A DNA stretch of 64,000 nt from Escherichia coli (GCF_024223415.1 NZ_CP100500.1); one strand, 5' to 3'; positions 53,795-59,075 are shown, numbered from the stretch's first letter. Made by a program: numbers and translations. Notes: generated by a model from the sequence alone, not told the origin.

Positions 53795-54081
53795 ATTAAT
53801 CCTGTTCATCATGATGCCTCTGTATAAGAAAGCTATGCTGTGCCTCCGGATTATTACGGCCAGTAACATTAGGTATTATGAGGCTCCCAACCGAAAAATC
53901 AGTGCACGACATTTTGAGGGCATTTCCCGGTGGCTTACTGGTATAAGATCATGATATTACGGCATTTGATTCTGCTGCTGAAACTAATCGGGACACGGTT
54001 TTTATGATTTTTGACGGAAGCAGGTATATTCCTCTGAGCGTCCTGAAATCGAAGGATTTTATTTTCCCGGAAAATAAGTAA
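53795..54081 (+). pseudogene. C-terminal fragment of a third phosphoethanolamine-transferase paralog
   Basis: Nucleotide and protein similarity to the 3' end of 20538..22040 (...ISARHFEGISRWLTGIR... versus ...ISARHFAGIFQWLTGIR...); no upstream part. Confidence 0.55.
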
Positions 54082-54281
54082 ATCATCTGATAAAAACAAT
54101 ATATTCACAAAGGATAAATTATTTTGATAAACAGTCGGAAATATTAAAAATGTCTGTTGTATGCTCATTGTCCATTATTCCCTGATTACATAGTAGAATA
54201 CCCGGAGCCAGACATATCCTAAACCGCCCTGTTTTTACTCAGGGTATATTTTACTGTATAACTAACTGGTGATAATGCTTT

Positions 54282-55103
54282 ATGTTGAATGCAAGACATC
54301 TTCCCGTACTGATGTACCATCATGTCAGTCGTTGTCCGGGGCTTGTGACACTTTCACCTGAAACATTTTGTGAACAGATGGAGTGGCTCGCAAAAAATAA
54401 CTGGCGGACAGTAACATCCGCTGAACTTGAGTATTTTTATCAGGGGGGAACGCTTCCAAGAAAGAGCGTCATGATTACATTCGATGACGGATATCTTGAT
54501 AACTGGTTCCGGGCATGGCCGGTACTGAAGGAATACAATCTTCATGCGCATATTTTTCTCATTACAGGGTTGATTGGTGACGGGAAGGTGCGTTACAGAC
54601 AGAAACGGGAATATTCGCATCGCGACTGTGAGCAGTTGATTGCAGATAACCGTTCCGATGAAGTGATGCTTCGCTGGTCTGAAGTCCGGGAAATGCGTGA
54701 TTCCGGTCTTGTTGAATTCCATTTACATACCCATTCACATAAACGCTGGGACAGACTGTCTGTACCACGTACTGAGCAGTGCCGACTCATGGAAGAAGAT
54801 ATTCTGACTGGCAAACAATGTCTGACGGAAAAACTGGGATACTGTAGTCCCCATCTGTGCTGGCCTGAAGGATATTATAACAGAGATTATATGAATCTCG
54901 CCAGAGAACTTGGTTTCTCTTATTTATATACAACTGAAAGAAGAATGAACTGCCCTGAAAAAGGCTCATTACGTATAGGACGTATTAGTACAAAAGAACG
55001 GGAATATTCCGGCTGGCTGAAACGGCGCCTTTTTTATTATATCACGCCATTTTTCTCTTCATTACTGGCTCTTCATAAGGGGCCAAGATTACCAGAGAAT
55101 TAA
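54282..55103 (+). CDS. polysaccharide deacetylase (NodB-homology) protein, Shf/Ecf1-like
   Basis: 273 aa; ...VLMYHHV... and ...MITFDDGYLDNW... motifs of the NodB/IcaB/PgaB-type deacetylase fold; first gene of a four-gene + strand cluster. Confidence 0.7.
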   Translation: MLNARHLPVLMYHHVSRCPGLVTLSPETFCEQMEWLAKNNWRTVTSAELEYFYQGGTLPRKSVMITFDDGYLDNWFRAWPVLKEYNLHAHIFLITGLIGDGKVRYRQKREYSHRDCEQLIADNRSDEVMLRWSEVREMRDSGLVEFHLHTHSHKRWDRLSVPRTEQCRLMEEDILTGKQCLTEKLGYCSPHLCWPEGYYNRDYMNLARELGFSYLYTTERRMNCPEKGSLRIGRISTKEREYSGWLKRRLFYYITPFFSSLLALHKGPRLPEN

Positions 55104-55105
55104 TA

Positions 55106-56209: not shown

Positions 56210-56348
56210 CTGAGGATCCCGTTTTCAGCACGAATTCTGTTCATCGGTTTTCCGGTAAGGGGAGGATTTATTACATTTTTACCGGGAGACGGTCAATGCA
56301 TTTAAACGCCGGAAACAGCAGACCTGCTTTCAGCCGGAGCGCACTGGG

Positions 56349-58016
56349 GTGGGCGATACTTTATTTTTGTTTTTTTCCACCCTGCTGCAGGTCATTATCT
56401 TCAGCACCGGATACAGCGGAACAAATGGAATACGGGATTCACTGTTATTCAGCTCCCTGTGGCTGATACCCGTGTTTCTTTTTCCGGAACGGATAAAAAT
56501 TATTGCGGCAGTTGTCGGTATTATTCTCTGGGCCACGTCACTGGCAGCACTCTGTTATTATTTTATTTATGGTCATGAGTTCTCGCAGAGTGTTCTTTTC
56601 GTTATGTTTGAAACCAATGCCAGCGAGGAAGGCGAATATTTCAGCCAGTATTTCAGCCTGAAACTGTTGTTTATCACACTGGTATATACCGCAGTTTGCA
56701 TTTTCCTGTGGACACGCCTGCGGCCAGTGTACATTCCTTTTCTGTGGCGGGGAATTGTCTCTTTCCTGTTGTTTTATGGTCTGCTACTGCATCCGGTCGT
56801 GCTTAAATCGTTCATCCGGCAGGAGCCGGTGAACGATACTCTGGGAGCACTGGCATCGCGGATGGAGCCGGCGGCACCCTGGCAGTTTGTTTCCAGTTAT
56901 TACCAGTACCGTCAGCAGCTGAATGCACTGACTTCCTTCCTGAACGAAAATAGTGCACTGCCACCACTGAGCAATTTTAAGGATACATCAGGTGACGGGG
57001 CACGTACGCTGGTTCTGGTTATTGGTGAGTCCACACAGCGCGATCGCATGAGCTTATACGGCTATGCGCGTGAAACCACACCGGAGCTGGATGCGTTGCA
57101 TAAAACAGATCCAAATCTTACCGTGTTTAATGATGTTGTGACATCGCGTCCGTATACCATTGAAGTCCTGCAGCAGGCCCTTACTTTCGCTAATGAGGAG
57201 AATCCCGATCTTTACCTGACGCAGCCGTCACTGATGAACATGATGAAACAGGCCGGGTATAAAACTTTCTGGATCACCAACCAGCAGACAATCACCGCCC
57301 GCAACACCATGCTCACGGTATTCTCGCGTCAGACTGACAGGCAGTACTACATGAACCAGCAGCGGACACAAAGTGCGCGTGAATATGACACTAATGTACT
57401 GTAGCCATTCCGGGAAGTGCTTCATGATCCGGCACCAAAGAAGCTGATTATCGTTCATCTGCTGGGGATACACATCAAGTATAAATATCGTTATCCGGAA
57501 GATCAGGGACGGTTTGATGGTAATACCGATCATGTTCCGCCCGGATTAACTGCGAAAGAACTGGAAGCGTATAATGATTATGATAACGCCAATCTGTATA
57601 ACGATCATGTTGTCGCCAGTCTGATAAAGGACTTCAGGGTGACTTCACCGGATGGTTTTTTGCTTTATTTTTCAGATCATGGAGAAGAAGTATACGATAC
57701 ACCGCCACATAAAACCCAGGGGAGGAATGAGGATCACCCGACACGTCCCATGTATACGATCCCGTTCCTGCTGTGGACCTCGGAAAAGTGGCAGGCAGCA
57801 CATCCGCGGGATTTTTCTCAGTATGTTGACCGCAAATACAGTCTGGCTGAACTGATCCACACCTGGTCGGATTTGGCTGGCCTGACATACGATGGTTACG
57901 ATCCGGAAAGCTCCCTGGTGAATCCGCTGTTCAGGGAGAGTACCCGCTGGATTGGTAACCCATACAGGAAGAACTCCCTGACTGATTTTGACAGACTGCC
58001 GTATGTTAATTCGTAA
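56349..58016 (+). pseudogene. phosphoethanolamine transferase gene interrupted by a single in-frame TAG
   Basis: ORFs 56349..57404 and 57417..58016 are in the same frame, separated only by TAG at 57402-57404; motifs LVLVIGESTQRDRMSLYGY (N-part) and LYFSDHGEE (C-part); combined length about 555 aa, typical of EptA/EptB. Confidence 0.7.
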
Positions 58017-58139
58017 TCCTTCCCCGTCTTCTGCCCGGGCATGAAGACGGGCTCTCATTTCCCCGGGCCTTGCACGGCAGGTATTCTCTGCTGCCGCTGT
58101 CTGTTATTATAATAAAATAAGCTGCAGATACTGGAAGAT

Positions 58140-59075
58140 ATGAAAAATAACAGACCTGAATTTATTCCACGTTTTAGGCGATCATTCTTATCCCCTCGTT
58201 ACTGGATGACGTGGGCGGGTACAGGCATTATCTGTATATCTGCGATGGTACCTCCTGTACTGCGAGACCCGTTACTTGAAAAACTGGGTACACTGGCCGG
58301 GCGTTTTGGGAAAAGTGCACGTCAACGGGCGCTGATTAATTTATCTCTTTGTTTTCCTGAGTACAGCGATGAAGAAAGGGAGAAGATCGTTGATGCCATG
58401 TTTGCTACTGCGCCCATGGCTATTGTGCTTATGGCTGAATTAGCTCTGACAGGAGCTGATAAAATTTCCCGTCGTATACGCTGGAATGGTCTGGAAGTCG
58501 TGGAAAAGATGGCACAGAATAATGAAAAGGTCATTTTTCTGGTGCCCCATGCATGGGGGGTGGATATTCCTGCAATGCTGATGGCAGCATCGGGCAGAAA
58601 AGTTGCAGCAATGTTTCATAACCAGAAAAATCCCGTGCTGGATTATCTCTGGAACAGTGCACGTCGTCGTTTCGGAGGAAGGCTGCATGCACGCAATGAT
58701 GGTATCGGCCCCTTTATCCGCTCCGTGCGACAGGGATACTGGGGATATTATCTGCCGGATCAGGATCATGGTCCTGAAGTGAGTGAATTTGCGGAGTTCT
58801 TTGCGACGTATAAAGCAACTTTACCGATTACCGGACGGCTGAGCAGGATCTGCGGAGCACGGATAATACCGCTTTTCCCGGTGTATGACGGAAAGACCCA
58901 CCTGTTGACCATTCATGTCAGCCCGCCGCTTGTTGTTCGGCAGGAGAGCGAGACACATATTGCGCGACAGATAAACGAAGTGGTTGAGAATTTTGTCCGG
59001 CCACACCCTGAGCAGTATACATGGGTGCTCAAATTGCTGAAGACACGTAAGTCAGGGGAAGAAGATCCTTACTGA
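58140..59075 (+). CDS. LpxL/LpxM-family lipid A late acyltransferase (msbB2-like paralog)
   Basis: 311 aa; ...RALINLSLCFPE..., ...NEKVIFLVPHAWGVDIPAMLMAA..., ...HARNDGIGPFIRSVRQGYWGYYLPDQDHGPE..., ...PEQYTWVLKLLKTRK... closely match recalled E. coli LpxM (MsbB). Confidence 0.8.
   Translation: MKNNRPEFIPRFRRSFLSPRYWMTWAGTGIICISAMVPPVLRDPLLEKLGTLAGRFGKSARQRALINLSLCFPEYSDEEREKIVDAMFATAPMAIVLMAELALTGADKISRRIRWNGLEVVEKMAQNNEKVIFLVPHAWGVDIPAMLMAASGRKVAAMFHNQKNPVLDYLWNSARRRFGGRLHARNDGIGPFIRSVRQGYWGYYLPDQDHGPEVSEFAEFFATYKATLPITGRLSRICGARIIPLFPVYDGKTHLLTIHVSPPLVVRQESETHIARQINEVVENFVRPHPEQYTWVLKLLKTRKSGEEDPY

Follow-up and report, generated by a model that had tools for sequence, protein, structure and literature searches.

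The 64,000-nucleotide stretch of Escherichia coli DNA analyzed here (GCF_024223415.1, NZ_CP100500.1; the whole stretch is called the window below) carries between 53.7 and 59.1 kb four co-oriented genes on the plus strand. According to an open reading frame (ORF) map and family scans, they encode a CE4 deacetylase, a GT4 glycosyltransferase (WabB), a CptA-family phosphoethanolamine (PEtN) transferase, and an LpxM paralog. We conclude, with a probability of roughly 0.85, that this locus is a chromosomal allele, of ancient divergence, of the lipopolysaccharide (LPS)-modification operon of the ecf type, whose type example lies on plasmid pO157, and that a mosaic island of poultry-associated E. 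coli carries it as a cargo module. The reading frames of ecf1, ecf2, and ecf4 are intact, and ecf3 is broken. An earlier note on this DNA, made from the sequence alone, had found the four genes and a transferase fragment in front of them essentially where we place them (Table 1), all on the plus strand. It had missed, though, that the PEtN transferase gene is broken by a 1-bp deletion and an in-frame TAG codon.

The assignment to the ecf type was based on gene order and alignment. The order of the genes equals that of pO157p79-82 (ecf1-4), and window positions 54002-59076 are colinear with pO157 Sakai over 5,106 alignment columns at 83.1% DNA identity, including 280 nt upstream of ecf1. Judged from the sequence, this likeness is far beyond chance. 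The resemblance to plasmid loci proposed in the earlier note was thus confirmed, at 83% DNA identity for pO157 ecf1-4 and at 62-69% amino acid (aa) identity for Shigella pCP301. The aa identities to the pO157 products of ecf1, ecf2, ecf3, and ecf4 were 90.5, 84.8, 88.5, and 83.9%, and the same figures were obtained against pO165. With the Nei-Gojobori method, all four genes, pseudogene included, gave a synonymous divergence (dS) from plasmid ecf of 0.45-0.75 and a ratio of nonsynonymous to synonymous divergence (dN/dS) of 0.09-0.12. These values therefore describe an allele that has long evolved on its own, with purifying selection acting until recently and with lesions of recent date. The distance from all plasmid copies would also fit a more speculative and rather improbable reading, namely descent of the lineage from an old chromosomal stock that gave rise to the ecf operons on plasmids.

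The surroundings place the module on a chromosome. Window positions 2010-53568 are colinear at 99% with the chromosome of the chicken-meat isolate GF60, positions 60393-64000 match six chromosomes at 99.9%, and over the block 52011-60395 the chromosome of the chicken isolate Ch1, in which the island adjoins tRNA-Phe, shows 99.5% identity (99.9% within the ecf block). In GCA_016679365, a third assembly, an integrase beside yraQ marks the end of the same block. Islands of the CM2 type share this backbone, with sitA, DoxX, a dolP paralog, and a yebF-like gene, followed by a TPR protein and an integrase, and they carry an outer membrane protein (OMP) gene, a hypothetical gene, and EcsC where the window has ecf; homology breaks at 53568/53788 and resumes at 59051. 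Because the same backbone carries OMP and EcsC genes instead, the ecf block can be regarded as replaceable cargo within a family of chromosomal islands. A check of the window's larger ORFs revealed no genes for plasmid replication, partition, or transfer. With this result and the colinearity to the GF60 and Ch1 chromosomes, the island setting proposed in the earlier note holds. Its own caveat, that the contig might prove to be a plasmid, was examined as well, and both the flanks and the best matches are chromosomal.

Distribution was surveyed in 5,426 complete E. coli genomes. An ecf-like match was present in 649 of them, at 684 places, of which 633 were on plasmids and 51 on chromosomes; a location on a large virulence plasmid is consequently a trait of the type example and does not define the family. 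The predominance of plasmid places could suggest that the segment is a recently integrated piece of an ecf virulence plasmid or even that the contig itself is a plasmid, and some chromosomal copies (VTB97432v, TUM9812) are 85% identical to the window, which is about as distant as the plasmid copies (84-85%). This origin is nevertheless barely tenable, as the identity of the allele to every plasmid copy is no more than 83-85%, none of 602 matching plasmid records has a place reaching 99%, and plasmid homology is confined to 54002-59076, while the flanks match the chromosomal island backbone at 97-99% and rep, par, and tra genes are missing from the larger ORFs of the window.

The complete allele of the window was found in only one of the surveyed genomes, namely Ch1. 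The junction region 53560-54290 occurs in 29 further complete chromosomes at 96.7-97% identity. Two of these 29 sibling copies were inspected (SFE8 and ECCNB12-2); they lie beside an integrase and ynjA, and all four genes are decayed, with ecf1 and ecf2 frameshifted or stopped, ecf3 truncated at approximately codon 144, and ecf4 absent. The sibling lesions are independent of those in the window, with an ATA at the ecf3 start and in-frame deletions at the site of the window's frameshift (positions 9723-11973 of the stretches compared). Together with the ecf3 lesions, the state of the siblings indicates ongoing decay of a redundant accessory operon. A scan of 100,044 species-representative genomes with the GT4 protein returned one contig of a metagenome-assembled genome (MAG) labelled 'Lachnospiraceae' (86%, ecf-like, colinear) and an unrelated weak match. 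The contig in question (CAAGKF010000310.1, 6.5 kb) carries an ecf cluster with 84% DNA identity to the window and is almost certainly a mis-binned Enterobacteriaceae contig. As only this stray MAG contig and the weak match were returned, the scan gives no information on a donor species.

The broken gene, ecf3, was compared with pO157, another E. coli allele, and K-12 eptC. Relative to these, one base is missing beside a T-run at 56370-56376, which shifts the frame at approximately codon 25, and a TAG replaces AAG at codon 370, between the GEST nucleophile region and the downstream SDHGE metal-binding region. Accordingly, tblastn matches residues 1-27 in one frame (frame 1) and residues 24-570 in another (frame 3). 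Since the TAG parts the GEST region from the SDHGE region, neither ORF piece can be a working enzyme, and ecf3 does not encode the combination of membrane and sulfatase domain, Thr nucleophile, and distal His/Asp metal ligands that makes a complete one. In the 99.9% identical copy of strain Ch1, PGAP likewise marks ecf3 as 'frameshifted; internal stop'. The frameshift is common to the window, Ch1, and GCA_016679365, and the TAG is found only in the window and Ch1, from which it follows that the frameshift preceded the TAG.

After conceptual repair, Ecf3 scored 1033 bits against NF007933 (cut-off 404) and 982 bits against NF012179 (cut-off 900), and it shares 88.5% aa identity with pO157 Ecf3 and 82.6% over 547 residues with K-12 EptC. 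By family, Ecf3 is a heptose-I-phosphate (core) PEtN transferase, that is, a duplicate of the housekeeping enzyme, and not a lipid A enzyme of the EptA/MCR type. As a CptA/EptC paralog, it does not fit the lipid A part of the 'lipid A/LPS modification locus' named in the earlier note. In a protein collection of 5.8 billion clusters, nothing exceeded 89% identity to the repaired Ecf3, and no intact member of its lineage was found; for the GT4 protein, the same collection holds a 100% identical entry.

A 1-nt length difference beside or within a homopolymeric T tract is also what a reversible phase-variation switch would leave behind, with slippage in the T-run (T7 here, T8 in an intact relative) turning ecf3 on and off. 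In GCA_016679365, which has the frameshift only, a +1 slip would restore the full ORF, and a GTG at 56349 could start a product short of only approximately 19 N-terminal residues. We consider such a switch very improbable, since the window and Ch1 also have the irreversible TAG at codon 370, before the SDHGE region, a T7 run is short for an efficient contingency locus, and the same OFF length was found in all three independent assemblies, with no intact protein of the lineage in the collection mentioned above.

The two genes upstream of ecf3 are in better condition. Ecf1 retains the TFDDG and HxxxH motifs in its translation and has no evident signal peptide; it is 90.5% identical to Ecf1 of pO157 and pO165 and 68.6% identical to Shigella Shf, with a dN/dS of 0.11. 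The ATG of ecf2 overlaps the second of two TAA codons after ecf1. The 368-aa GT4 model of PGAP in Ch1 begins 3 nt earlier, at an ATA (55103), where the plasmid copies read ATGATG, and the ATG at 55106 is the more plausible start. The GT4 protein shares 84.8% aa identity with pO157p80 and 61.6% with Shigella RfbU/CapU, again with a dN/dS of 0.11, and a 100% identical protein is present at NCBI. Against NCBIfam, which holds no WabB equivalog model, it gave only generic GT4 matches below the cut-offs. It is, in any case, a close homologue of the characterized WabB enzyme of pO157/pWR100.

Between ecf3 and the last gene lies a spacer whose predicted fold is more stable than those of its shuffles (z -3.4); a G+C-rich hairpin immediately follows the stop codon of ecf3. 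In the plasmid copy, this spacer has a 12-nt insertion and many substitutions compared to the window. From the predicted fold, the hairpin could be an internal attenuator or terminator. The LpxM paralog that follows (lpxM2, the ecf4 of this locus) encodes a product with 83.9% aa identity to pO157p82, 64.5% to Shigella MsbB2, and 67.5% over 311 residues to K-12 LpxM, at a dN/dS of 0.12. The HX4D acyltransferase motif (PHAWGVD) is retained, and by family the protein would be a secondary lipid A myristoyltransferase; for MsbB2, an LpxM-like myristoyl transfer to lipid A has been described. In alignments, the ATG of lpxM2 at 58140 falls on residue 1 of Shigella MsbB2 and on residue 4 of K-12 LpxM, and in GCA_016679365 the same 311-aa product is called.

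The question of whether lpxM2 is a pseudogene arises from the annotation of Ch1, in which PGAP flags lpxM as such in the near-identical copy. The flag is probably due to a 1-bp indel in a non-conserved extension upstream of the ATG, and the pseudogene status was rejected as less likely, the sole indel lying 5' of the ATG. As the start furthermore aligns with the starts of the homologues and the 311-aa ORF spans the whole TIGR02208 model, lpxM2 is probably intact.

Homology, gene order, lesions, chromosomal context, and distribution were observed or computed here; the enzymatic roles are inferred from characterized homologues, and expression of the locus is presumed. WabB/RfbU adds alpha-1,7 glucosamine or N-acetylglucosamine (GlcN(Ac)) to heptose III of the R3 core. 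The GT4 enzyme (WabB) would accordingly add N-acetylglucosamine (GlcNAc) to heptose III of the LPS inner core at the cytoplasmic face of the inner membrane, and the signal-less CE4 deacetylase Ecf1 would convert part of this GlcNAc to glucosamine (GlcN). The lack of a signal peptide in Ecf1 fits a step at the cytoplasmic face. This sequence of reactions would parallel that of Klebsiella, where WabH, a GlcNAc transferase, and WabN, which deacetylates LPS-GlcNAc, install core GlcN. The LpxM paralog may attach the final (myristoyl) acyl chain of lipid A, a reaction in which it would be redundant to the housekeeping lpxM. Ecf3, as a duplicate of EptC/CptA, would have transferred PEtN onto phosphorylated heptose I, prior to its inactivation by the frameshift and the nonsense codon. 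With ecf3 inactive, the locus can therefore contribute no PEtN transfer and nothing beyond a decoration of the core with GlcN(Ac) and a spare acylation of lipid A. The most likely residual function, as far as our analysis goes, would be the addition of GlcNAc to heptose III, its partial deacetylation, and a redundant late acylation of lipid A.

Several points weigh against this functional assignment. The waa locus, which determines the core type, lies outside the window, and the R3-type acceptor for WabB is thus a predicted one. The Shigella homologue of Ecf1 (SfPgdA, Shf) was published as a peptidoglycan deacetylase, and SfGtr4, the Shigella WabB homologue, as a glucose transferase to lipid A in vitro; SfPgdA physically interacts with SfGtr4. 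Since these published activities differ, the substrates of Ecf1 and Ecf2 are not settled. In addition, the scan of the locus for promoters and terminators yielded no more sites than expected from shuffled sequences, sigma-70-like sites included, and the PGAP flag on lpxM in Ch1 has to be counted here as well.

Part of this evidence would also fit a locus that is entirely a silent fossil, with no gene expressed or functional and with intact ORFs that merely have not acquired lesions yet. The gene ecf3 is already dead, the two inspected siblings have lost all four genes, and the flag on lpxM and the promoter scan without enrichment point in the same direction, as does an upstream region that is only moderately conserved in pairwise alignment with the plasmid copies. 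We regard complete silence as a serious though unlikely explanation. In all three sampled copies of the variant (window, Ch1, and GCA_016679365), ecf1, ecf2, and lpxM2 are intact, the catalytic motifs are kept, the lpxM2 start matches that of Shigella MsbB2 and lies 3 residues inside K-12 LpxM, and most of the differences that separate the three copies in ecf1 and ecf2 are synonymous, albeit with tiny counts. We prefer a partly decaying operon with three intact genes that may retain the residual function outlined above.

A further, rather speculative interpretation concerns the decay itself. The pattern of an ecf3 that is broken in 3/3 copies, no intact protein of its lineage, and three other genes intact might reflect that the PEtN transferase was selectively discarded in the chromosomal lineage, a second EptC being neutral or costly, and that a trimmed module for core GlcN and lipid A acylation was kept as useful in poultry-associated E. 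coli. At present, we consider this improbable.

Table 1 Features of the ecf locus and its immediate borders in the window (coordinates counted from the first nucleotide of the window)
Feature	Coordinates	Strand	Remarks
OMP-gene 5' remnant, approximately the first 40 codons	53667-53798	+	border between island backbone and ecf module on the left side
yjgX-like PEtN transferase remnant, residues ~400-457 of 500	53777-53951 (~175 bp)	+	frame change and internal stop
AT-rich upstream region, presumed promoter/regulatory	54002-54281	+	homologous to DNA 5' of ecf1 on pO157-type plasmids
ecf1-like CE4 polysaccharide deacetylase, 273 aa, intact	54282-55103	+	PF01522, E 2.3e-25
ecf2/wabB-like GT4 glycosyltransferase, 367 aa, intact	55106-56209	+	PF00534, PF13439, PF13692
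ecf3-like CptA/EptC-family PEtN transferase, pseudogene	56296-58016	+	1-bp deletion between 56369 and 56370; AAG to TAG at 57402-57404
ecf3-lpxM2 spacer	58017-58139	+	predicted stable hairpin at ~58025-58051; 1-bp indel relative to plasmid copies
ecf4/msbB2-like LpxM paralog, 311 aa, intact from ATG	58140-59075	+	TIGR02208 409 bits (cut-off 336); NF006507 495 bits
TPR protein gene	59103-60158	-	island backbone, convergent with lpxM2, outside the ecf module

The region upstream of ecf1 consists of two parts. The blastn alignments with pO157 Sakai and pO165 begin 280 nt before the ecf1 ATG, and the G+C content is as low as approximately 38% in 54000-54499. For pO157, a secondary source describes a thermoregulatory element of intrinsically curved DNA (BNT2) 5' of ecf. 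Further upstream, two gene remnants are fused. Positions 53572-53788 are 73.8% identical to the start of an 'outer membrane protein' gene of strain CM2, and this OMP remnant also matches residues 16-42 of the OMP encoded at 19623-20363 of the window. Positions 53789-53944 share 71-74% DNA identity with the 3' part of the K-12 yjgX-type PEtN transferase pseudogene, with homologues in 2,447 E. coli genomes. This second piece corresponds to the 'fragment of a third transferase gene' in the earlier note. It is 73% identical at the DNA level to a paralog at 21747-21901, and its tblastn matches are split over two frames; the intact paralog, a 500-aa PEtN transferase, is encoded at 20538-22040. From these matches, the fused remnants derive by deletion from a module of an OMP gene and a PEtN transferase gene, an intact paralog of which lies at 19623-22040. 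That module (plus strand) encodes a 246-aa OMP with a weak match to the Adr adhesin family, followed by the 500-aa PEtN-transferase-family protein, which stays below all NCBIfam cut-offs and resembles the K-12 yjgX pseudogene family. When 53000-59400 was searched for repeats, direct or inverted, of the kind that would border a transposon-like unit, only short matches of chance size appeared, and no Rfam family reached its gathering score in 50000-64000.

The remaining content of the window illustrates the mosaic character of the island. A dolP paralog (52445-53032, plus strand) passes the NCBIfam equivalog cut-off; with approximately 70% DNA identity to K-12 dolP over 218 bp, this copy was rejected as the native gene or as a marker of a core site. 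Next to it, a YebF-family gene encodes 103 aa (53079-53390, minus strand) and scores just below the equivalog cut-offs. Both genes travel with the island backbone in several E. coli chromosomes. On the minus strand, sitA (49392-50306) is intact; as the adjacent sitB is only a fragment in related islands, it is apparently what is left of the sitABCD iron/manganese transporter operon. The left part of the mosaic carries a 1,274-aa autotransporter (7669-11493, plus strand), annotated as an S6-family peptidase in matching chromosomes, with an AbgT-family transporter gene (5798-7357) and an IS66 transposase gene (12049-13587) nearby. A P4-type integrase gene is located in the middle of the window (23698-24963, minus strand). 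In the whole 64 kb, ARAGORN found no tRNA gene, and an attachment site is thus not visible within the window; a P4-type integrase under these circumstances suggests tandem or rearranged islands. At the right end, homology of the Ch1 and CM2 type stops at 60396 and is followed by a 5'-truncated IS110 transposase (60418-61188, model positions 91-343) and an IS3-like fragment (61460-61775), which replace the integrase found at that position in other strains.

With regard to previous work, the ecf operon has been in the literature since 2004, as later papers cite it. A chromosomal location is not new for shf-type loci, the related class known from Shigella, since a chromosomal shf-rfbU-virK-msbB2 locus was published for enteroaggregative E. 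coli (EAEC) 042, and VirK and MsbB2 are listed among the contents of the leuX islands in strains CE10 and ED1a. The exact proteins of the window allele are already deposited at NCBI under generic names. In the literature consulted, in which the primary ecf papers are represented by secondary sources, we found no description of chromosomal ecf-type alleles or of ecf3 as an EptC paralog or PEtN transferase. The analysis therefore adds that the ecf operon, usually a plasmid marker of enterohemorrhagic E. coli (EHEC), also occurs on the chromosome, as a separate and diverged allele within islands of poultry-associated E. coli, that copies of this kind are undergoing decay, and that ecf3 is a duplicate of the core PEtN transferase EptC and not a VirK analogue. 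Where typing relies on ecf genes as markers of plasmids or of EHEC, the chromosomal alleles are potential cross-reacting targets, and a phenotype prediction for the source strain should leave out an extra PEtN modification. Overall, the locus is an ordinary, partly decaying member of a known gene cluster and matters little beyond bookkeeping.

For comparison with known systems, the closest relative is the pO157 ecf operon, which has the same four genes in the same order and orientation over a colinear 5.1 kb, and whose third gene also belongs to the CptA/EptC family. The window copy differs in that it is located in a chromosomal island and not on a plasmid, represents a separate allele lineage (dS 0.45-0.75), and has a broken ecf3. 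The flanks differ as well, with a yebF-like gene, the OMP and yjgX remnants, and the TPR gene in the window, and insertion sequence (IS) elements around the pO165 copy. The Shigella pCP301 locus shf-rfbU-virK-msbB2 has homologues of genes 1, 2, and 4 in the same order, with aa identities of 68.6% for Shf, 61.6% for RfbU/CapU/WabB, and 64.5% for MsbB2. Loci of this shf type are found on Shigella pINV, on a plasmid and the chromosome of EAEC 042, and on Salmonella IncF plasmids. They share the general role in envelope and LPS remodelling with the ecf type, and regulation by PhoPQ was shown for them, but unlike the window they carry VirK (DUF535) as the third gene. Thus, a CptA-like (sulfatase-family) third gene is present in pO157 (pO157p81), pO165, and other E. 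coli contigs, including an allele that is 75% identical in the GT4 gene, whereas a DUF535/VirK third gene is present in Shigella pCP301 and the Salmonella IncF plasmids. On the Citrobacter braakii chromosome, DUF535 directly follows the GT4 gene, with no deacetylase or LpxM gene called beside them. The VirK protein of pCP301 gave no match at E <= 1e-3 when searched with tblastn against the whole window.

The description in the earlier note of a PEtN transferase 'in place of virK' consequently has to be revised. Because the window belongs to the ecf-type class, ecf3 is native to the locus and no swap took place; the transferase is the normal ecf3 of such loci, and VirK occurs only in the shf type. 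The pO157 ecf3 product (pO157p81, 573 aa) is labelled 'hypothetical' or 'putative membrane protein', and the latter label in the literature may explain the conflation with virK. Compared to the housekeeping enzymes EptC (CptA/YijP) and LpxM (MsbB), the corresponding genes of the window pass the same NCBIfam cut-offs, but they are accessory paralogs in an island away from the eptC and lpxM loci. Finally, WabH and WabN of Klebsiella pneumoniae follow the two-step logic of GlcNAc transfer and LPS-GlcNAc deacetylation that is proposed here for Ecf2 and Ecf1. This is a functional analogy only, as the acceptor of WabH/WabN is the outer core, whereas heptose III is the presumed acceptor for Ecf2 and Ecf1.

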